Positions 16,076 through 54,666 of a stretch of 64,000 nucleotides of DNA are shown piece after piece (position 1 is the stretch's first letter; each line of letters begins with the position of its first letter). The stretch comes from Candidatus Nitrospinota bacterium M3_3B_026 (lineage in GTDB: Bacteria > Nitrospinota_A > UBA7883 > JBPRGF01): NCBI GenBank assembly GCA_051418015.1, contig JBPRGF010000009.1, positions 1 to 64,000 on the forward strand. The letters are read 5' to 3'. A model generated the notes under the pieces. The model was not told the origin of the DNA. It saw only the letters and a program-made list of their open reading frames with translations, and did not search any database. Position numbers and translations under genes: made by a program.

Positions 16076-16149
16076 TGGGGCGTCGTCAAGTGGTAAGACA
16101 CGGGACTTTGGATCCCGCATCGGAGGTTCGAATCCTCCCGCCCCAGCCA
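16076..16149 (+). tRNA. tRNA-Gln (anticodon TTG)
   Basis: Cloverleaf folded by hand: acceptor stem TGGGGCG/CGCCCCA; anticodon stem CGGGA/TCCCG with loop CTTTGGA; T-arm GGAGG-TTCGAAT-CCTCC; encoded CCA end. Confidence 0.8.
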
Positions 16150-47425: not shown

Positions 47426-48628
47426 TCAGGAGCCGGGAGGGGTGAACAGCACGTCGTCGTTCGGAAGGAAGACGTCCGGGCCGGTGGAGTAGAGCGCGAC
47501 TTCTCCGTCGCTTTTTTCGAACCTGTAAGGGTTGTTCCAGGGATCCAGGAGGTCCGGTTGGCGGATGATTCCAGCTTTGGCGAGCTGGTCCAGACTTTCG
47601 GGCAGTCCGCCGCGCAGGACGTTATATATTTCGAGCCCCCTTGCTATTTTCTTGAGGCCGCCCCTCGCCTGAATGGCGTTCACCCGCGACATGCCGCTCT
47701 TTTGCGCCTCGATGAGCTCCGGCCACCTGGCCATCTGCCAGTACAGCCCGCCCACCACCACCGCAAGCAGCGCGGCGGTGATGACAAGGCGCATCGTGAG
47801 CCCGGCGCGGTCCGCTGTCTTCGTTTCCTCTTTTTTCTTTTTGGCGGGTTTTATTATCCCGAGTTCCAGGAGGCTTTTGATCGCCTCCAGCGACTCAAAA
47901 CTCCCCTGCCGGGCGGAGTCCAGCGTCTCCCGGATGCTTTTGCCCTGGCCGATGACGGAGAGGACGGCGACCTGCTGGTCCGAGAGCGTGACGCCCCGGG
48001 CGCTCAATATGTCGTACTCCAAAGACGAGCGGAAATCCCCTTGCGCGTTCTCCCGCGGCTTGGCGGCCAGCGAGTCGTCCTCCTCTTCCTCGCCGATTAT
48101 GTTTTTCACGATGAACGTGTCGAAAGGGGGGAGCCCCGCCGCCACCCTGGGCCACTCGTCGGCGACCCTGCACCCCTCCATCAGCAGCGCGTCCACGTCC
48201 ATCGGCGTCATCACCTTGTTGTTGTACTTGACGCCCTTCATGGGGGCGAACTCGTATTCCCCCTTTTTCCAGCGCAGGGCATAGTAGACGTTGTCGATCA
48301 CCTGGCGGCGGATGAACTCCACCAGGGTCTGCGTGCTGATCCTTCTTGCCAGGATGTCCCAGTACGGCTTGAGCTTGTCCTCGTGCTCCTTTTTGACCGC
48401 GCTCCACTCCTGCGGGGATATGACGGCGTTGGAGACCAGGCTTCCCCCCAGCCTGGTTTCGTCCCTTTGCGGGGAGCTTTCGGCGTATATGATGGCGCCG
48501 TTGTCGAAGGTGATCCTGACCGTCTCGTCCTTTTCGGTCAGCGTCAGCCTGCCGGTTTTTCCCTCCAGCTTTATCATCTGGAGTATGTTCATGATGTTGA
48601 AGTCGTCGAGACTTCCCTTCAGCGCCAT
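47426..48628 (-). CDS. PATAN (DUF4388)-domain protein with single TM helix and C-terminal type II secretion GspG-like pseudopilin domain
   Basis: N-terminal MALKGSLDDFNIMNILQMIKLEGKTGRL (DUF4388/PATAN); TM helix LTMRLVITAALLAVVVGGLYW; C-terminal LLDPWNNPYRFEKSDGEVALYSTGPD resembles the GspG C-terminal motif; ATG 48628 overlaps the upstream stop (ATGA). Confidence 0.6.
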   Translation of the reverse strand: MALKGSLDDFNIMNILQMIKLEGKTGRLTLTEKDETVRITFDNGAIIYAESSPQRDETRLGGSLVSNAVISPQEWSAVKKEHEDKLKPYWDILARRISTQTLVEFIRRQVIDNVYYALRWKKGEYEFAPMKGVKYNNKVMTPMDVDALLMEGCRVADEWPRVAAGLPPFDTFIVKNIIGEEEEDDSLAAKPRENAQGDFRSSLEYDILSARGVTLSDQQVAVLSVIGQGKSIRETLDSARQGSFESLEAIKSLLELGIIKPAKKKKEETKTADRAGLTMRLVITAALLAVVVGGLYWQMARWPELIEAQKSGMSRVNAIQARGGLKKIARGLEIYNVLRGGLPESLDQLAKAGIIRQPDLLDPWNNPYRFEKSDGEVALYSTGPDVFLPNDDVLFTPPGS

Positions 48629-50538
48629 CAGTAGTAGTCCTTCATGAATACCGTGTTCATCGCCAGCCAGTACAGGGCCGCCGCCGCGAGGAAGACGGCG
48701 TGCTCCCTGGCGAGTTCGGCCGACAGGGGCGTTTTGTATATCACAAGCTCGGAGCCTATCATGGCCACGGCGTACACAAGCATAACGCTGGTTATGAAGG
48801 TGAGCGGAAAGCCAGCCGCGGCCTCGTGGTGGTAGGATCTTCCGACGCCGGGGAGGAGCCTGTCCAGCCATCCGGCGGTCCTGTTCCTTTTTCTCGCGAA
48901 CTGGCGCATTTCCTTTCGTTTCCTGTCCTTTTTCGCGCTCGACACTCCCCCCTTGCTGAGCGTGGCTGCCACGCACTGGTTGCACTTCGGGAAAGGCGAG
49001 GCCAGGCGTATGGGAGGACGGAAGGGCGTCCCGCAGGAGGCGCAGACCTGGTGGGAGAGCCTCCTGTTCCAGAAGAGGGCCGCCGCGCCGAGCAGCAGGA
49101 CGAAGCCGGCGGACGCCCACCTGTAGAGCTCTTTCGATACGGGGCCGAAATAGACGCTCCACAAAACATCGGCGACGGTCTCCGTTTCCCGCGCCATGGC
49201 CCGCTCATAGCGGGAGAGGTCCCTGGATGTTATGGGAAAGTCGGCCACCTTGTTCTCGCTCCCCTCGCCGGTCGCCTCCACGAGCTCCCTTGTCCTGTCC
49301 AGGTCTATGGACAGGGCGATGTTGTACTCTTTTTCGGAGTCCTTGGTCTTGGCCATGAAAGCGTAGGCGTTCGACAGGTTGAAATGCGCCTCCACCGACC
49401 GCGGGTCGGCCTTGATGGCTTTCTCGTACATGTCGACGGTCTTGTCATATTCCTTCGCCAGGAAGTAGACGTTGCCCTTGTTGACCAGCGCCCGGACGTT
49501 GTCCGGGTCTTTTTCGAGCATCATGTCGTAATACCCGATGGCGGCGTCCTTGTCCTGCCTGAGCTTGTTGAGGTAGCCGAGGGCGAAGGCGGCTATTCCG
49601 GCGTCGGGGTTTTTCTCAAGCTCTTGCTCCAGCCTTTTTTTGGTCGAGTAGTCCCAGGTGTTTTCGGAGAGCAGATAGAGCGCCCTGTATGTCTCCGCGT
49701 CCGGCAGGGTCACGCCCCGGGCCATGTAATGGAAGGTGTAGGGGCCGGAGAAGAGGAACAGGACGAAAAGCGCGACCACTGCCTTCCCCCCCGTCTTGAG
49801 GTACGGCCACAGGAACAGCGGGATGGCCAGCAGGAAGACGAGCCATCCGCCCACCGCCAGCGGGACCAGCAGGACGAGCGCTCCCATCACGGCCTTCCAC
49901 GCCCCCTCGGGATGGGTGGGGATGAAATCGGTGATGTCCGACAGCAGGGCCCTGTAGTTCTTCGCCGCGCAGGCCAGAAAGGTGAGCAGGAAGGCCACCA
50001 GCAATGCCATGTATGCGTATCTGGCGGCGGCGGCTATGAACTTGCCGCGCTGTATCCTGTTCGAGAAAAGCGCCCTCACCCCGGCCGCGGCCTGGGCCCC
50101 GGCGTTTTTGACGTCCGTCTTGTCGCGCGCGATGATGGCGTGGGCCAGGAAAAAACGCGCCCGGGGATGGTCCGGCGCGAACATGACGGCGTGCTGGGCG
50201 GCGGTCACCGCGGTTTCGCCGTCCCCTTTATCGAGGGTCTCCCTCCCGACAGCCAGGGCGATGTCCGCCAGCGGGAAAAGGTTCCTCGTTCCAAGGTCCC
50301 GCATGGTGTTGAGTATTCTGTTGGCCTCGTCGAAGGCGCCGAGCCCGTCCCCGTCCTCGATGCGCTCCATCCAGCCCGTGAAAGCCTCCCCGAGCTCCCC
50401 GTTGGAGGCCAGGTCCTCGATCTTGAGCGCCTCTGCGCGGAAATAGCGTCCGTCTTTTATCCGGTCCTCACCGGAGGCGGGCGCGGCTGCCGAGAAAAGA
50501 AGCGCGAGGAAGGCCGCGAGCGCGGCGGTCAGTTTCAT
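48628..50538 (-). CDS. TPR-repeat polytopic membrane protein with Cys4 zinc-ribbon
   Basis: Signal/TM MKLTAALAAFLALLFSAAAPASG; several TPR units (AHFNLSNAYAF, ALVNKGNVYFL); CASCG...CNQC; 4-5 TM helices; start uncertain (ATG 50538 versus GTG 50589). Confidence 0.6.
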   Translation of the reverse strand: MKLTAALAAFLALLFSAAAPASGEDRIKDGRYFRAEALKIEDLASNGELGEAFTGWMERIEDGDGLGAFDEANRILNTMRDLGTRNLFPLADIALAVGRETLDKGDGETAVTAAQHAVMFAPDHPRARFFLAHAIIARDKTDVKNAGAQAAAGVRALFSNRIQRGKFIAAAARYAYMALLVAFLLTFLACAAKNYRALLSDITDFIPTHPEGAWKAVMGALVLLVPLAVGGWLVFLLAIPLFLWPYLKTGGKAVVALFVLFLFSGPYTFHYMARGVTLPDAETYRALYLLSENTWDYSTKKRLEQELEKNPDAGIAAFALGYLNKLRQDKDAAIGYYDMMLEKDPDNVRALVNKGNVYFLAKEYDKTVDMYEKAIKADPRSVEAHFNLSNAYAFMAKTKDSEKEYNIALSIDLDRTRELVEATGEGSENKVADFPITSRDLSRYERAMARETETVADVLWSVYFGPVSKELYRWASAGFVLLLGAAALFWNRRLSHQVCASCGTPFRPPIRLASPFPKCNQCVAATLSKGGVSSAKKDRKRKEMRQFARKRNRTAGWLDRLLPGVGRSYHHEAAAGFPLTFITSVMLVYAVAMIGSELVIYKTPLSAELAREHAVFLAAAALYWLAMNTVFMKDYY

Positions 50539-50585
50539 TTGGCGGAACACTCGGCGGTCCGAAAGGTTCAGTCGCCCGTCGTCCT

Positions 50586-51086
50586 TCACTCCTTGAACAT
50601 GTCGTCCAGCCTGTCTTTGACCGAATCGGAGTAGCCGGACTCGAGCTGTTGTTTCTGCACCACCCTTTTCGATGCGATGTCGAATATCTTCTCCAGCTTG
50701 GCCGTCAATTCCTTGGAGTAGAGGTTCACCATGCCCACGGTCGTCTTCTCGTCAAAGACTATGGCGCTTATCGCCCTGTCGCCGACGAGGGATATGTGGA
50801 TGTGGTCTTTCTTTCCCTGGTGGAACATCACGGCGAACTCCGTCTCGCCAAGAAGGCGCGCGAGCTCCTTGGTGGCGGCGAAAGCCCCCGCCACGAGGGC
50901 CGAAAGCGACTGCGGATTAATGGTCTGCGTGCTGCCCTTCTGGGTGACCAGGTGGCCTTCCTTGTCTATCAGGAAGATGCACTTGGCGTTGGACAGCTTC
51001 AGGAACTCTTCCAGGAGTTTCTCTATCTGGTCGAAGTCCTCTTTGTAGTAGATAAGCCGCTTGTCCCGGAGCTGCTCGTCTTTCAT
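50586..51086 (-). CDS. Roadblock/LC7-domain protein (MglB-like)
   Basis: Roadblock fold signature CIFLIDKEGHLVTQKG...VGDRAISAIVFDEKTTVGMV. Confidence 0.7.
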   Translation of the reverse strand: MKDEQLRDKRLIYYKEDFDQIEKLLEEFLKLSNAKCIFLIDKEGHLVTQKGSTQTINPQSLSALVAGAFAATKELARLLGETEFAVMFHQGKKDHIHISLVGDRAISAIVFDEKTTVGMVNLYSKELTAKLEKIFDIASKRVVQKQQLESGYSDSVKDRLDDMFKE

Positions 51087-51104
51087 TCGATCGACCCGGC
51101 CTTT

Positions 51105-52331
51105 CTAAAGGTTCTCGCTGTAGATATCGATGTCGGCCTGCTCCCGGAGTTTGCCGAAAAACTCCTCCAGCAGGTTTCGCTTGCGCTGGCCCTTTATTCT
51201 GGCCACGACTTCGCTTTTCACGCTTTCCAGCGGCGCTCCGCCGAACCTGCCGGCGTTGGCCCCGTAAAAGCTTTTCACCTCGCCTTCCGTTATCCTGAGC
51301 CTCTCGTTGAGGTTCGGGATCACTTCCCTTATTATCTTGCCGATTATGACGTTCTTGGTGGCCTCGTTGCGCAGATTGTCGAGGCTGAGCTTTCTGCCGG
51401 AGAGGTATCTGTCCATCTGCTCCTGGGAGGTGAAACGTTTCGTGAAACTCTTTATCTGCGCCTCAACCTCGTCCCTGGGCGCCTGAATCTGACGCTTCTT
51501 GGCGTCTTGTAATAATAGAACATAGTTTATGAGCGACTCAAGAAGTTTCTTTTTCTCCTCCGGCGTGAACTTTTTGAAGTCCTCCACCTCGTCGCTCTTG
51601 GCGCCCAGCCGGTACTGAGCCTGGCAGTACTGGTTGAAATAGGACCTGGATATCCTGTCCGCGTTGACCTTGGCGACGTAGATCTCCTTTTTCTCCTCCG
51701 GCTTCTTCTCCTTTTTGGCTTTTTTCACCGCTTCGGCCACGGCTCCGGGCTCCTTGGCGTTTAGCCGGTCGAGTATCATCGAGGCGGTAAGCTTCAGCGT
51801 GCCGAGCACCCCCTCACCGGTGGCCGCGACGGCCTCGGTGGTGGGCGCGCCCATCCAGTTTATCTTCTCGTCCAGCTCCTCCACGCTCATGGCGGTGGGC
51901 AGGTCCCGCTTGTTCCACTGGATCACCAGGGGAATCTGCTCGATCTTCAGGCCGTACTCTTCCAGGTTTTTCTTGAGGTCCTCCAGCGACTCTATGTTCT
52001 CCGCCAGCTTGTCCTTCTGCGAGTCGGCGACGAATATGACGCCGTCCGCCCCCTGCAGGACGAGCTTGCGGGTGGAGGAGTAGTAGACCTGGCCGGGGAC
52101 GGTGTAGAGCTGGAACTTCGTGTTCATCCCCCGCACCTGGCCAAGGTCCAGGGGCAAAAAGTCGAAAAAGAGTGTCCTGTCGCCCTCGGTGGCTATGGAG
52201 GTCATCTCGCCCTTGCTCTGGTCAGGCACCTTGGTGTGGACCACCTCGAGGTTCGTCGTCTTCCCGCTCATGCCGGGACCGTAATACACCAGCTTGCAGG
52301 ATACCTCCCGCTTAGCGTAGTTTATCTGCAT
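51105..52331 (-). CDS. mglA: MglA-family Ras-like small GTPase with about 210-aa C-terminal extension
   Basis: N-terminal 195 aa align to MglA (YGPGMSGKTTNL P-loop, DFLPLDLGQVRGMNTKFQLYTVPGQVYY, IQWNKRDLP); the extension is Lys/Glu-rich and SurA-N/PpiD-like by motif resemblance only. Confidence 0.75.
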   Translation of the reverse strand: MQINYAKREVSCKLVYYGPGMSGKTTNLEVVHTKVPDQSKGEMTSIATEGDRTLFFDFLPLDLGQVRGMNTKFQLYTVPGQVYYSSTRKLVLQGADGVIFVADSQKDKLAENIESLEDLKKNLEEYGLKIEQIPLVIQWNKRDLPTAMSVEELDEKINWMGAPTTEAVAATGEGVLGTLKLTASMILDRLNAKEPGAVAEAVKKAKKEKKPEEKKEIYVAKVNADRISRSYFNQYCQAQYRLGAKSDEVEDFKKFTPEEKKKLLESLINYVLLLQDAKKRQIQAPRDEVEAQIKSFTKRFTSQEQMDRYLSGRKLSLDNLRNEATKNVIIGKIIREVIPNLNERLRITEGEVKSFYGANAGRFGGAPLESVKSEVVARIKGQRKRNLLEEFFGKLREQADIDIYSENL

Positions 52332-52368: not shown

Positions 52369-52731
52369 TCACACTTCGATCCGGCCGGTTTTCTTGATCT
52401 CGTTGGCGGCCTGGAAAAGCGCCACGTTCACCTTGCCCGGGTCGACTTCCAGCTCCGTGATGGCGATGAGCACGGATTTGCCGAGATCCACGACATAAAT
52501 CCGCTTCTGGTTAGACTGAATTATATACCGCGTGAATTCGTTGTGCCCCATGTTTTTGAGGGCGTTTTTTATGTTCTGGGCGATCTGCGACATGAAAGCC
52601 CCCAGCGTCTCGGCGGTCTCGGGATCGTCCAGGTTGGACTCTATGACCATCCCCTCCTTGGTTATTATCAGCGCGCCAAGCATGTAGTCGCTGTTGCAGA
52701 GTACCTTGAGAATAGACTTTAAGGTGTTCAC
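52369..52731 (-). CDS. Roadblock/LC7-domain protein (MglB-like)
   Basis: MLGALIITKEGMVIES...VLIAITELEVDPGKVN roadblock signature; 120 aa. Confidence 0.75.
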   Translation of the reverse strand: MNTLKSILKVLCNSDYMLGALIITKEGMVIESNLDDPETAETLGAFMSQIAQNIKNALKNMGHNEFTRYIIQSNQKRIYVVDLGKSVLIAITELEVDPGKVNVALFQAANEIKKTGRIEV

Positions 52732-52846: not shown

Positions 52847-53812
52847 TCAACCGGCCACCTCCTCCAGATAGCGTTGTATGCGTTTCTCCACCGCCGAAAG
52901 GTTCGCGTCGTTGTCCACGACCACGGCTATCGTGGCGTAGAACGCGTTGGCGATGATTATTGTGCCGATGGGGCTGACGAGGGTCCCCCTCTGGAAGCTG
53001 CCGTTGCCAAGCCTTCGCGTGGCGTTCATGGAGGTCTTGTAAAGGTTGAAGACGAACGAGGGTATGATGTTCTCGTCGAGCCCGGCCCTGTTTATGATCT
53101 TTATCGGCTGCCCGTTCCTGTCCAGCAGGAAAAGGGCGTTCAGACCTTCGAGCCTGCTGAATATCGTGAGCTTGGCGCTCATCGCCTCCTGCGCGTGCAG
53201 GTCCTCGGCCTCCTCCTCGCCGCCTATGATGACCTTCTCGTCCATGGCCGGGGCGGCGGCCCGGGGGGCTTTTTCCACCTCGGCGCGCAGCGCCTGGTCT
53301 ATTATGACCTCTCCGGCCCCCTCCTCACCAAGCTCCTCGGTCTCCCCCTCCTGCGTTTCCTCCTTCTTCACGGCCTCCTTCGCGGCGGCCTTCTCCTCCT
53401 TCTCCCTGACGATGTTCATCAGGGAGACGGCCCGCTCGTCGTCGGGGGCGGTCTCGAGAATGTCCGTCAACAGCGCCTTGGCGCGCTTTCTCGCGCCGGC
53501 CTTGAGGTATATCTGGCTGGAGAGCAGCTTGGCCAGGTAGTTCCCCGGGTCGAGCTTCAGCGTCTTCTCGAGGCTGCCCAGGGCCGCCTTCAGGTCGTCC
53601 GGCCTGCCCTTCTTGTTGTAGCGGGTGATGAAGGTCTCCGCCCTGGCCATATGGACGGCGCTGTTGTTCGGAAACCTGGAAAGCGCCTTCTCCAGCACGC
53701 TAAGGGCGAGGGCCGTCTCCCCCAGTTTCCTTAGCTGCTTGGCTATCCTCGCGTAAGCGATGGCGGCCGCCGGCTGGACGCTTTTGCCGGGGGGGCTCTC
53801 CTGTGCGGTCAT
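52847..53812 (-). CDS. TPR-repeat protein fused to C-terminal roadblock/LC7-like domain
   Basis: N-terminal TPRs (ALSVLEKALSRFPNNS...); C-terminal LFLLDRNGQPIKIINRAGL...GTIIIANAFYATIAVVVDND roadblock-like. Confidence 0.55.
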   Translation of the reverse strand: MTAQESPPGKSVQPAAAIAYARIAKQLRKLGETALALSVLEKALSRFPNNSAVHMARAETFITRYNKKGRPDDLKAALGSLEKTLKLDPGNYLAKLLSSQIYLKAGARKRAKALLTDILETAPDDERAVSLMNIVREKEEKAAAKEAVKKEETQEGETEELGEEGAGEVIIDQALRAEVEKAPRAAAPAMDEKVIIGGEEEAEDLHAQEAMSAKLTIFSRLEGLNALFLLDRNGQPIKIINRAGLDENIIPSFVFNLYKTSMNATRRLGNGSFQRGTLVSPIGTIIIANAFYATIAVVVDNDANLSAVEKRIQRYLEEVAG

Positions 53813-54146
53813 CTTATCCCGGGGTTATCGCGGAGTTCAAAAAAGTTCGCTCCCTTTGCGTGGAACAAGCCCGGCGGGCCATAAAAATCCTCTTGAAATC
53901 CAATAGTTATCCACGCATTACTTGACTGCCGTATTCTAGCTACGGGGGCGAAGCTTTGTCAAATACATTTAATTATCGTATAAGTTGCTTAAATGTTTGT
54001 AAATTTAAATGTACCGCGAAGGGATGGCGGAACGAAGAAAACACGCGCGCGAACCCGCGGGACGCTGGCCGAAAAGGCGTCTTTACATGGCCTGCGCAAT
54101 CTAATAGAGTAAAACACAAGGCTTGTTCTGAAAGGGGAAAAGAGAA

Positions 54147-54341
54147 ATGTTCGGTATAGGAATGCCCGAGCTCATTATCATCCTTGTTATCCTGCTCGTG
54201 ATCTTCGGAGCCAGCAGACTGCCGGAGATAGGCGCGGGTCTGGGTAAGGGGATAAAGAATTTCAAAAAGTCGGTAAGCGACACCGAAAAGGAGCTCAAGT
54301 CGCCCGAAGACTCGGTCGAGAAAGAGAAAGGCGGCTCCTGA
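54147..54341 (+). CDS. tatA: Sec-independent protein translocase subunit TatA/E
   Basis: [41 protein letters not shown]. Confidence 0.9.
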
Positions 54342-54360: not shown

Positions 54361-54666
54361 ATGGCGATGGAAAAGGAGTTCAGGATAACCTGCCCGTGTT
54401 GCGATACCATCCTCATCGTGAGCAGGGCGGAGGGGAAGATACTGGAGACGAGAGCGCCCATTATCGAAAAGTCCACCGGCGACAGGCTCCAGGACGCCTT
54501 CCTGAAAGCGGAAAAGGACAGGCGGGCGCGTGAGGCGGCGTTCGACAACATCAAGGAGACGCTGGACAGAAAGAAAAAGAGCGCCGATGACCTTTTCCGC
54601 GCCTCGCTGGAGGAGGCCCGCGGCGACGAGGGCGAAAAACCTCCTTCCATCTTTGACGCGGACTGA
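54361..54666 (+). CDS. Hypothetical small protein with CxCC motif and charged C-terminus
   Basis: 101 aa, 19 nt downstream of tatA; no recognisable family. Confidence 0.4.
   Translation: MAMEKEFRITCPCCDTILIVSRAEGKILETRAPIIEKSTGDRLQDAFLKAEKDRRAREAAFDNIKETLDRKKKSADDLFRASLEEARGDEGEKPPSIFDAD

Follow-up and report, generated by a model that had tools for sequence, protein, structure and literature searches.

Among the Ras-like polarity switches of bacteria MglA serves as the model, and to our knowledge it has always been regarded as a single-domain protein with separate, recruited effectors. In the window (the whole stretch of 64,000 nucleotides that was analyzed), an MglA gene encodes a second domain in the same reading frame. 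The host belongs to the Nitrospinota, important marine nitrite oxidisers that are not known to glide; Nitrospina gracilis was described as non-motile. The questions raised by the locus are whether this gene is real, what the additional domain is, and what it might do for the GTPase.

The fusion gene and its GTPase domain

The gene (Table 1) starts with ATG, has an AAGG-type ribosome-binding site about 10 nt upstream, as read from the sequence, and contains no internal stop codon. The uninterrupted MglA frame reported in the preliminary description was thus found as an open frame of 408 aa. Canonical MglA has 195-197 aa (PMC4316618), close to the roughly 195 aa given in that description, and the extension, first put at roughly 210 aa, measures about 215 aa. 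Where the early account gave a Lys/Glu-rich and then amphipathic stretch, a K/E/P/A-rich linker is followed by a helical domain.

Table 1. Features of the MglA-SurA_N locus, with positions in the window
Feature	Coordinates	Strand	Remarks
Candidate sigma-70-like promoter	53933..53962	minus	TTGACA, 18-nt spacer, TAGAAT; 11/12; pattern match only
TPR protein with acidic linker and C-terminal Roadblock-like domain	52847..53812	minus	321 aa; first cluster gene
Second Roadblock/LC7 protein	52369..52731	minus	~120 aa; directly upstream of the fusion gene; Robl_LC7 44.8 bits
MglA-SurA_N fusion gene, complete	51105..52331	minus	408 aa + stop codon; ORF list, sequence
MglA-type Ras-like G domain	51756..52331	minus	residues 1-192
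Flexible linker, K/E/P/A-rich	51690..51755	minus	residues 193-214 (~22 residues)
SurA/PpiD/PrsA-type 'NC' chaperone core domain	51108..51689	minus	residues 215-408
MglB, cognate Roadblock GAP	50586..51086	minus	166 aa; starts 18 nt beyond the fusion gene
Polytopic TPR membrane protein, Cys4 zinc-ribbon-like motif	48628..50589	minus	636-653 aa, depending on the start
PATAN (PatA_N/DUF4388), one transmembrane helix, T2SS-G (pseudopilin)-like domain	47426..48628	minus	400 aa

Over residues 3-191 the protein aligns from end to end both with MglA of M. xanthus (5ymx/6h17, E 4e-69) and with that of T. thermophilus (3t12, E 8e-67), while the next-best matches, Arf proteins, reach an E value of only 1e-6. 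Identity of the G domain to M. xanthus MglA is about 56% over 190 residues, and the P-loop, Arg finger, catalytic Gln, TxxGQ and NKRD are common to both. The complete catalytic set of MglA (P-loop GxxxxGKT, Arg finger, switch I Thr, TxxGQ, NKxD) is present as GPGMSGKT (G18-T25), intrinsic Arg52, Thr53, TVPGQ81 (T77-Q81) and NKRD140-143, and these residues are invariant or nearly so among 62 family members. An MglB (Roadblock) GAP is encoded within four genes, as is expected of an MglA. The GTPase-GAP pair is intact, and GTP binding, GTP hydrolysis and its stimulation by MglB are predicted.

As in group 1 MglA systems, a full-length MglB with an acidic C-terminal helix adjoins, and PATAN-domain and TPR proteins, reported near some group 1 MglAs, are encoded nearby. 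Group 1 MglA has about 195 aa, whereas the protein described here carries a covalent SurA-type domain; compared with group 1 of M. xanthus and T. thermophilus, the conserved cluster also encodes two additional Roadblock proteins and a pair of membrane proteins. Wuichet and Sogaard-Andersen 2014 used a single domain of 150-240 aa as their operational criterion, and the fusion, with its second folded domain, lies outside it; this main evolutionary survey of MglA dropped every sequence longer than 240 aa (PMC4316618). No published description of an MglA-SurA fusion was found in literature searches on MglA, SurA, Nitrospina/Nitrospinota and C-terminal extension. The literature matches for 'C-terminal extension' concern MglB, not MglA.

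A merger of separate mglA and SurA_N genes by frameshift, assembly error or lost stop codon could be read from one NCBI record, which gives the same sequence as a 224-aa protein from an internal methionine. This explanation is given virtually no credence. A Logan contig that was assembled separately, from run SRR28149505, matches window positions 41105-62331 (21,227 bases) at 100% identity with no gap and encodes the identical fusion protein; this contig and the window may share a source sample. A single intact fusion ORF of 405-414 aa was found in each of 13 species-level Nitrospinota genomes (13/13) by a genome scan that used alignment A3 of the closer C-domain subset, a number that is a lower bound biased to close relatives. 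About 89 protein clusters from many samples, with identities down to 43%, share the architecture, and the SurA part lacks both a separate start region and a separate anchor. With these clusters and with homology E values as low as 1e-69, the observation lies well outside what chance would give. With the identical contig and the intact orthologues, the artefact reading is effectively refuted and the fusion is confirmed as genuine. Comparison with orthologues, which had been proposed as a check, recovered the same extension in these genomes and clusters; judged from their sequences, the fusion is kept across the phylum Nitrospinota. The internal start at Met185 (NCBI record MGK7344644.1) was rejected, as this Met is not conserved (L, I or V in the family) and the frame is continuous.

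The SurA-type domain and its relatives

The domain search proposed for the extension gave two Pfam families above their gathering scores, both at residues 215-333: SurA_N_3 (PF13624), 46.3 bits against a gathering score of 27.2, and SurA_N_2 (PF13623), 28.7 bits against one of 28.5. These matches support the resemblance to SurA-N, PpiD and trigger factor that had been noted from the sequence. Trigger_C reached 17.4 bits, below the cut-off of 22.7, so the domain is not assigned to trigger factor; the likeness to the trigger factor C-terminal domain and MPN555 is much weaker, and no ribosome-binding or FKBP domain is present here. The helical core fold of the SurA type, built from N-terminal and C-terminal segments, is complete. 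Neither Pfam nor NCBIfam gave a parvulin/rotamase match in the fusion protein, and when the C-domain is aligned by profile with PEB4 and HP0175, their parvulin regions are skipped. Signal peptide, lipobox and N-terminal transmembrane anchor, the marks of an extracytoplasmic location, are absent from the C-domain, and the SurA_N_3 match starts at profile position 40, past the anchor part. From the chaperone core of SurA, PpiD, PrsA, PEB4 and LIC12922 the C-domain differs in lacking parvulin and an export signal or anchor, in being basic instead of acidic, in conserved residues of its own and in its attachment to a GTPase.

Outside the fusion family the C-domain comes closest, at about 85-100 bits, to stand-alone, parvulin-less SurA_N_3 proteins of about 205-290 aa, such as P0132 of Candidatus Magasanikbacteria. 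They have the same domain boundaries as the C-domain and likewise no parvulin insert. They begin with a transmembrane anchor or lipoprotein signal (a hydrophobic N-terminal anchor or lipobox in 96 of the 105 nearest) and are very acidic, with a median pI of 4.2 and a net charge of -24, whereas the fusion shows neither property: the C-domain of the window protein has a pI of 9.4, and the medians of the fusion family are pI 9.2 and net charge +7. About 20 positions are conserved solely in the fusion family, while shared core residues are kept. Among the former are YCQxQYRL 235-242, D251 and K254 (within the D-F-K-K-F stretch, residues 251-255), K278, R313, NEAxK 322-326, K380 and K384. Values of dN for the C-domain are 0.25-0.43; as all pairs at hand show saturation at synonymous sites, omega is given, where computable, only as upper bounds of about 0.08-0.2. 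By these estimates the domain is under purifying selection. By its sequence, with no anchor, a basic pI and some 20 conserved positions of its own, the C-domain is cytoplasmic; it has moved there from an extracytoplasmic ancestor and has been remodelled and repurposed.

Across the family the linker varies in composition and, in the alignment, in length from 8 to 70 residues. In a hydropathy scan of 62 fusion members, linker and C-domain proved free of hydrophobic segments; the most hydrophobic 19-residue window (Kyte-Doolittle 1.67) lies within helix alpha-5 of the G domain. In the AF2 model of the full-length protein, residues 195-213 have pLDDT values under 50, and no confident contact is seen between the G domain and the C-domain (pTM 0.47).

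The gene cluster and tail-anchored homologues

The fusion gene is the third of six genes in a conserved cluster, which encodes a TPR-Roadblock protein, a Roadblock protein, the fusion, MglB, a polytopic TPR membrane protein and a PATAN-TM-pseudopilin-like protein. The first protein matches TPR_19 (55.7 bits) and, weakly, the MAPKK1_Int/Roadblock clan at residues 217-318; its orthologues in loci L003 and L004 were flagged as Robl_LC7, and the gene is present in all loci. Each of the 16 other Nitrospinota loci (L002-L017) has the second Roadblock gene in the same place, and a Roadblock gene was called at the corresponding position in the tail-anchored relatives described below. Residues 10-166 of MglB match M. 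xanthus MglB (6izw_B/6h5b_B, E 1e-31) as well as Pfam Robl_LC7 and NCBIfam MglB; the acidic C-terminal helix (DRLDD) is retained, and mglB is conserved in all related loci. The start of the membrane TPR gene overlaps the mglB stop. Its product has Pfam TPR matches, and the translation contains hydrophobic segments and CxxC...CxxC; the gene directly follows mglB in all but one of the 16 other Nitrospinota loci. The PATAN gene, called in locus L001, is conserved behind it (PF14332 69.9 bits, T2SSG 18.5 bits). Together these two genes accompany the fusion in 15/16 other Nitrospinota loci and in 0/2 tail-anchored loci; in L003 the fusion is present without them.

A consensus scan placed a sigma-70-like match about 120 nt upstream of the first cluster gene, and the intergenic gaps downstream of it are short or overlapping; it is a candidate for the operon promoter. 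A search of the 64-kb window, and of about 10 kb around the gene in the 16 other Nitrospinota and two tail-anchored loci, revealed no second mglA or SurA-like gene. Rfam and tRNA scans gave nothing relevant near the locus.

The closest non-fusion homologues found for the G domain, at about 70% identity, are tail-anchored MglA proteins (P0090-P0120). One of them is named Planctomycetota, and several are labelled 'SRP receptor subunit beta' by JGI. Their appendage consists of a Pro/Ala-rich linker of 100-190 residues and one C-terminal transmembrane helix, with no folded domain. In the two loci that were compared, the order TPR protein, Roadblock, MglA, MglB is the same as in the fusion loci, while the downstream TM-TPR and PATAN-pseudopilin genes are missing. 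As the appendage differs and the four-gene order does not, the C-terminal appendage appears to change while the module stays. In a neighbor-joining tree of G domains the tail-anchored clade is nested among fusion clades, with internal branches of 0.002-0.015. Given two loci and a tree without resolution, a replacement of one anchor by the other is to be taken as a parallel and not as demonstrated history. The drop in C-domain scores between the fusion family and the stand-alone relatives, from 163 to 101 bits, is a better argument than this tree for a single origin of the fusion.

Possible role of the C-terminal domain

The reading preferred here, to which about an even chance is given, is an MglA orthologue of Nitrospinota whose C-terminal module is a built-in docking or adaptor domain. 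MglB, the GAP whose gene follows that of the fusion, would switch off a Ras-like polarity GTPase that is joined permanently, via a flexible linker, to a parvulin-less chaperone core of the SurA/PpiD type. The ancestors of the module would have been membrane-anchored or lipoprotein chaperones outside the cytoplasm; the anchor would then have been lost, the net charge turned from strongly acidic to basic and new conserved residues gained in the cytoplasm. The domain may serve to tether the GTPase to a specific partner at the inner membrane face, or to load the GTPase with that partner, most plausibly a co-conserved product of the cluster or an anionic lipid. Thus it would do the job of the transmembrane tail anchor in the closest non-fusion homologues. 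In eukaryotic Ras proteins, targeting relies on a C-terminal hypervariable region and a lipid anchor, to which the C-domain would be a parallel. Partner binding, the identity of the partner and the setting of MglA location by the C-domain are what we infer; the basic surface fits binding of nucleic acid or acidic proteins equally with lipid binding.

The SurA-like domain could alternatively have remained a holdase for unfolded or extended clients, for instance envelope or pilus-like proteins before export, with the MglA nucleotide cycle setting the site of capture and release. Such a GTP-gated cytoplasmic chaperone or targeting factor would follow the logic of SRP54 or Get3, in which a client-binding domain goes together with an NTPase. 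It is considered unlikely, since the inversion of charge and the residues specific to the family favour a dedicated partner over generic clients, and no client is identifiable. A related scheme makes the fusion the core of a GTP-gated delivery system, in which the relocated domain captures a specific envelope-protein client or hands it over. MglB and the two extra Roadblock proteins would set the nucleotide state, which would decide where capture or hand-over occurs, and the recipients of the client would be two co-encoded products, the polytopic TPR membrane protein and the PATAN-TM-pseudopilin protein. The delivery scheme is distinctly unlikely. If true, it would amount to a bacterial counterpart of the GTPase-plus-client-binding logic seen in SRP and Get3 and, taken with the tail-anchored homologues, would mean that prokaryotic Ras-like GTPases target membranes through the C-terminus as eukaryotic ones do.

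The C-domain might instead act within the molecule, by tuning access of GAP or GEF, by auto-inhibiting effector binding or by dimerising MglA; PrsA and PEB4 dimerise via their SurA-type core domains. Linker and domain leave right after helix alpha-5, beside the place of the MglB Ct-helix pocket of M. xanthus, which is formed by alpha-5, the beta2 strand and the beta2-beta3 loop, with contacts of K181 and K185 (PMC6785124). K180, which equals M. xanthus K181, is nearly invariant in the fusion family, the acidic helix of MglB is kept, and linker and C-domain are positively charged. A regulator of this kind is nevertheless unlikely: AF2 sets the two domains independently around a disordered linker, the range of linker lengths speaks against a fixed intramolecular geometry, and by the tail-anchored homologues the C-terminal position would have a role in targeting. 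A cytoplasmic GTPase joined across the membrane to a periplasmic SurA-like domain would suit the extracytoplasmic relatives, whose N-terminal anchor sits exactly where the MglA-linker attaches, and the transmembrane helix that follows the linker in the closest non-fusion MglA homologues. The hydropathy scan of the 62 members contradicts it, and the Pfam match begins only after the anchor; this arrangement is highly improbable and was rejected.

A covalent partner domain offers a direct handle on the function of an MglA module in a lineage without known gliding. Public annotation masks the fusion: the proteins go under the names 'SurA N-terminal domain-containing protein' or 'SRP receptor subunit beta', and one record shortens the gene to 224 aa. 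No earlier description was found of an MglA fused to a chaperone-type domain across the Nitrospinota. C-terminal targeting appendages are a hallmark of the eukaryotic Ras, Rho and Rab proteins. The phylum-wide fusion, its relocated and remodelled domain and the transmembrane tail anchor of the homologues together suggest that such appendages also exist on prokaryotic small GTPases.

Integrity and distribution of the fusion gene

The fusion gene is one open frame of 408 codons, which encodes an MglA GTPase domain (G domain, residues 1-192), a linker (193-214) and a C-terminal SurA-like domain (C-domain, 215-408). An AAGG-type ribosome-binding site is read in the sequence about 10 nt 5' of the ATG start, and the N-terminus, MQINYAKREVSCKLVYYG, is the same as the start of characterised MglA proteins. 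Neither a stop codon nor a frameshift occurs near codon 200 in the window sequence, and the frame does run uninterrupted into a long extension, as the preliminary description had stated. The 21,227 bases from 41105 to 62331 are 100% identical, with zero gaps, to a Logan contig from run SRR28149505, assembled separately from a sample that may be the window's own. That the fusion is an artefact is given almost no chance.

The fusion sequences and their Pfam calls are already in the databases, under names that mask the architecture. NCBI record MGK7344644.1 (P0271) has the exact window sequence, annotated as a 'SurA N-terminal domain-containing protein' of 224 aa with internal Met185 as its start; it spans 51105-51779 (residues 185-408) and drops the entire GTPase domain. 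Since Met185 is not conserved among the fusion family, this annotation looks like a start-site mis-call concealing the fusion.

The same two-domain architecture was found in 89 clusters (search of 5.8 billion clustered proteins), with identities down to 43% and, a few truncated entries aside, lengths of 376-454 aa. Organism-labelled clusters come from Nitrospinae/Nitrospinota or hydrothermal-vent metagenomes, with one cluster member labelled Nitrospirae. With one genome scanned for each GTDB species, 13 species-level MAGs emerged, of which ten are labelled Nitrospinota or Nitrospinaceae and three 'Nitrospirae'; each has a single intact fusion ORF of 405-414 aa. The count of 13 is a lower bound, because the two short patterns used came from close relatives. 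The extension, for which a comparison of orthologues had been proposed, is thus shared. Evolution of the C-domain is faster (dN 0.25-0.43, vs 0.09-0.16 for the G domain) and yet clearly under constraint, omega being at most 0.2 wherever computable, with synonymous sites saturated.

GTPase domain and remodelled SurA-like domain

Residues 3-191 align without gaps to MglA of M. xanthus (E 4e-69) and T. thermophilus (E 8e-67); Arf proteins are the next-best solved structures, at only about 1e-6. The set of MglA catalytic features is complete and, across 62 aligned family members, invariant or nearly so. K180, also nearly invariant in these members, is the counterpart of M. xanthus K181, which sits in the alpha-5 pocket, the docking site of the C-terminal helix of MglB (PMC6785124). 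The MglB gene begins 18 nt downstream of the fusion and its product is full-length, acidic C-terminal helix included (residues 10-166 vs 6izw_B, E 1e-31). Because the catalytic set is intact and a full-length MglB adjoins, the two are predicted to be a working MglA/MglB pair and not a pseudo-GTPase system. Sequence, motifs and MglB coupling all identify the protein as an MglA; it departs from the operational definition of a 2014 survey only in not being a single domain of 240 aa or less, and that survey explicitly left out 39 of 488 MglA-clade sequences, those above 240 aa (PMC4316618).

The linker is K/E/P/A-rich, predicted to be disordered (residues 195-213, pLDDT < 50), and 8 to 70 residues long across the family. 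Residues 215-333 match Pfam SurA_N_3 with 46.3 bits (gathering score 27.2), beginning at profile position 40, directly past the membrane-anchor portion of the model; against SurA_N_2 the extension scores 28.7 bits (gathering score 28.5). Its profile matches PDB chains of PEB4, HP0175, Cj1289, SurA and PrsA over their N-terminal segment and C-terminal tail, skipping the parvulin domain between. Modelled alone, residues 213-408 are predicted to form a confident helical domain (pLDDT 92, pTM 0.82). Its best structural match is LIC12922 (3nrk, score 12.4), and further matches are SurA (2pv3, 11.9), a Bacteroides fragilis PPIase (8hm3, 11.9), the SurA core in BAM complexes (8qpv, 11.0), PpiD (8zht, 9.7), Cj1289 (3rgc, 9.4) and trigger factor (4-6); Foldseek gives TM-scores of 0.57-0.66 against the chains of that SurA core in BAM complexes. 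By the skipped parvulin domain and the fold matches, the extension is a complete SurA/PrsA-type 'NC' chaperone core that lacks the PPIase insert. The preliminary description had guessed rightly at a SurA-N/PpiD/trigger-factor-like extension, and by Pfam score and fold the C-domain is a member of the SurA_N_3 family. Lacking both the parvulin domain and an export signal or anchor, it does not count as a SurA, PpiD or PrsA protein.

In an exhaustive C-domain profile search of 1.84 billion representatives, only six proteins exceeded 160 bits, and those inspected were fusion proteins or their fragments. Scores then drop, without intermediates, to about 100 bits, where many stand-alone SurA_N_3 proteins without a parvulin domain (about 205-290 aa) are found, one of them from Candidatus Magasanikbacteria. 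Among the 105 stand-alone relatives whose N-terminal sequence is long enough for an assessment, 96 have a hydrophobic N-terminal anchor (examples include TM helices and lipobox cysteines). The domain of the stand-alone proteins is extremely acidic (median pI 4.2, net charge -24); the fused C-domain has a median pI of 9.2 and a net charge of +1 to +17 (62 members), next to a G domain that is acidic (pI about 5.5). No hydrophobic stretch was detected in the linker or C-domain of any of the 62 fusion members (Kyte-Doolittle, 19-residue windows), the most hydrophobic window of any member being in G-domain helix alpha-5 (mean at most 1.67). A transmembrane topology is contradicted by this hydropathy and is very improbable; the whole protein is predicted to be cytoplasmic, because the G domain must be.

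When both groups were aligned to one HMM, core positions V219, A220, N223, I227, L264, I268, L272, A277, L310, E351, Y356, L395, R396 and I401 were common to both, and about 20 positions were conserved in the fusions only (Y235, C236, Q239, Y240, R241, D251, K254, E259, K278, R313, N322, E323, A324, K326, P339, F363, K380, K384). The fused domain has retained the SurA fold, switched compartment and acquired a new conserved surface. In the fusion subfamily P0078, P0080, P0082, P0083 and P0085 (444-454 aa) the linker is Ser/Thr/Gln/Pro-rich, 60-70 residues long and of net charge +11 to +13, and a strongly basic segment, e.g. LLQRARQIGQRYVGWIRRKEK, directly precedes the SurA-like domain. This segment, probably amphipathic, could be a membrane-binding helix; it occupies the position of the TM anchor in the stand-alone relatives.

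Gene cluster and tail-anchored relatives

Coordinates of the cluster, G-domain motifs and other features
Feature	Position	Strand or location
TPR, acidic linker, Roadblock-like protein	52847-53812	-
Roadblock protein	52369-52731	-
MglA-SurA_N fusion	51105-52331	-
MglB	50586-51086	-
Polytopic TPR membrane protein with Cys4 motif	48628-50589	-
PATAN, TM helix, pseudopilin-like (T2SSG) protein	47426-48628	-
P-loop	G18-T25	G domain
Intrinsic arginine and threonine	R52, T53	switch I, G domain
G3 motif T-V-P-G-Q	Q81	G domain
G4 motif N-K-R-D	N140-D143	G domain
Tail-anchored MglA gene	L018:8001-8945	
Tail-anchored MglA gene	L019:8001-9140	
ORF opposite real genes	48700-50634	+
ORF opposite real genes	50649-51512	+
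ORF opposite real genes	52874-53734	+
TatA/B/E-family gene	54147-54341	+
Small ORF, CPCC motif	54361-54666	+
tRNA-Gln (anticodon TTG)	16076-16149	+

The fusion is gene three of a tightly packed cluster, with gaps of 115, 37 and 18 nt and overlaps at the final two junctions; a sigma-70-like pattern match (11/12) lies 5' of gene one. Genes one to four recur in this order in each of the 16 other Nitrospinota loci examined, and 14 of those loci have all six genes, the exceptions being L011, which stops within gene five, and L003, without genes five and six at that position. No second mglA was found in the window, nor within about 10 kb in any locus examined.

Roadblock and Longin dimers serve as GEF platforms for eukaryotic small GTPases, and by this analogy the two extra Roadblock-type proteins upstream of the fusion, one joined to TPR repeats via a very acidic linker, are a candidate GEF or scaffold for it. 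The polytopic TPR protein (636-653 aa) begins with a signal or TM segment and also contains TPR repeats, several more hydrophobic stretches and a zinc-ribbon-like CxxC...CxxC motif (CASCGTPF...CNQC). Its gene adjoins mglB in the Nitrospinota loci, L003 excepted, and has an ambiguous start: GTG at 50589, overlapping the mglB stop, vs 50538 as called on the Logan contig. The product of gene six, kept in that position in Nitrospinota, has an unusual architecture of a cytoplasmic PATAN domain (PatA_N/DUF4388), one TM helix and a periplasmic type II secretion G (pseudopilin)-like domain; it carries no prepilin-type signal. Some group 1 MglAs were already noted to be associated with PATAN-domain proteins (PMC4316618).

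The G+C content of the window is 61.6%. The long plus-strand ORFs (286-644 aa) opposite real genes are taken as antisense ORFs without function. The TatA/B/E-family gene and the small ORF, whose 101-aa product has no Pfam match on record, are divergent from the MglA cluster. The tRNA is the sole RNA gene found in the window (Rfam, ARAGORN).

The closest MglA homologues without a SurA domain (P0090-P0120; 236-387 aa, mostly 300-390 aa) have G domains about 70% identical. The six that were read have a Pro/Ala-rich low-complexity linker of 100-190 residues followed by a single C-terminal TM helix, which makes them tail-anchored MglAs. One homologue is labelled Planctomycetota, and several bear the JGI name 'signal recognition particle receptor subunit beta'. 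In both tail-anchored loci (L018, L019) the gene order is TPR protein, Roadblock, MglA, MglB. Their MglB is 49-54% identical to that of the window; the TPR protein gives a weak, nearly full-length alignment in one locus and aligns in the TPR region only in the other. Downstream TM-TPR or PATAN-pseudopilin genes are absent from both. One and the same module thus occurs with two alternative appendages at the C-terminus of its MglA. A G-domain neighbour-joining tree (internal branches 0.002-0.015) does not settle whether the fusion clade is monophyletic with respect to the tail-anchored clade. No description of a membrane-anchored MglA was found in the literature searched.

Possible role of the C-domain

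Several elements are established: the GTPase and GAP are intact by sequence; the SurA-type domain is folded, conserved and cytoplasmic, is flexibly tethered and has been remodelled; membrane proteins are co-conserved with the fusion; and the nearest homologues without the fusion have a membrane anchor in the corresponding place. From these we infer the function: the C-domain may be a built-in docking or adaptor module, a reading with about an even chance of being correct. It would hold MglA at, or load MglA with, a particular partner at the cytoplasmic membrane face, either a cluster product or an anionic lipid. In small GTPases generally, targeting elements sit C-terminal to alpha-5, as do the hypervariable region and lipid anchor of Ras. 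That the fusion truly chaperones or targets unfolded clients under GTP control is considered unlikely. Less likely again is that the C-domain regulates the GTPase cycle within the same molecule, close to the alpha-5 pocket where K180 is nearly invariant, or serves in dimerisation.

No description of an MglA-SurA fusion, or of MglA in Nitrospina or Nitrospinota, came up in full-text searches. The host phylum is hard to work with. The evidence for the fusion architecture and for its evolutionary remodelling is solid, and both would come as a mild surprise to a specialist.
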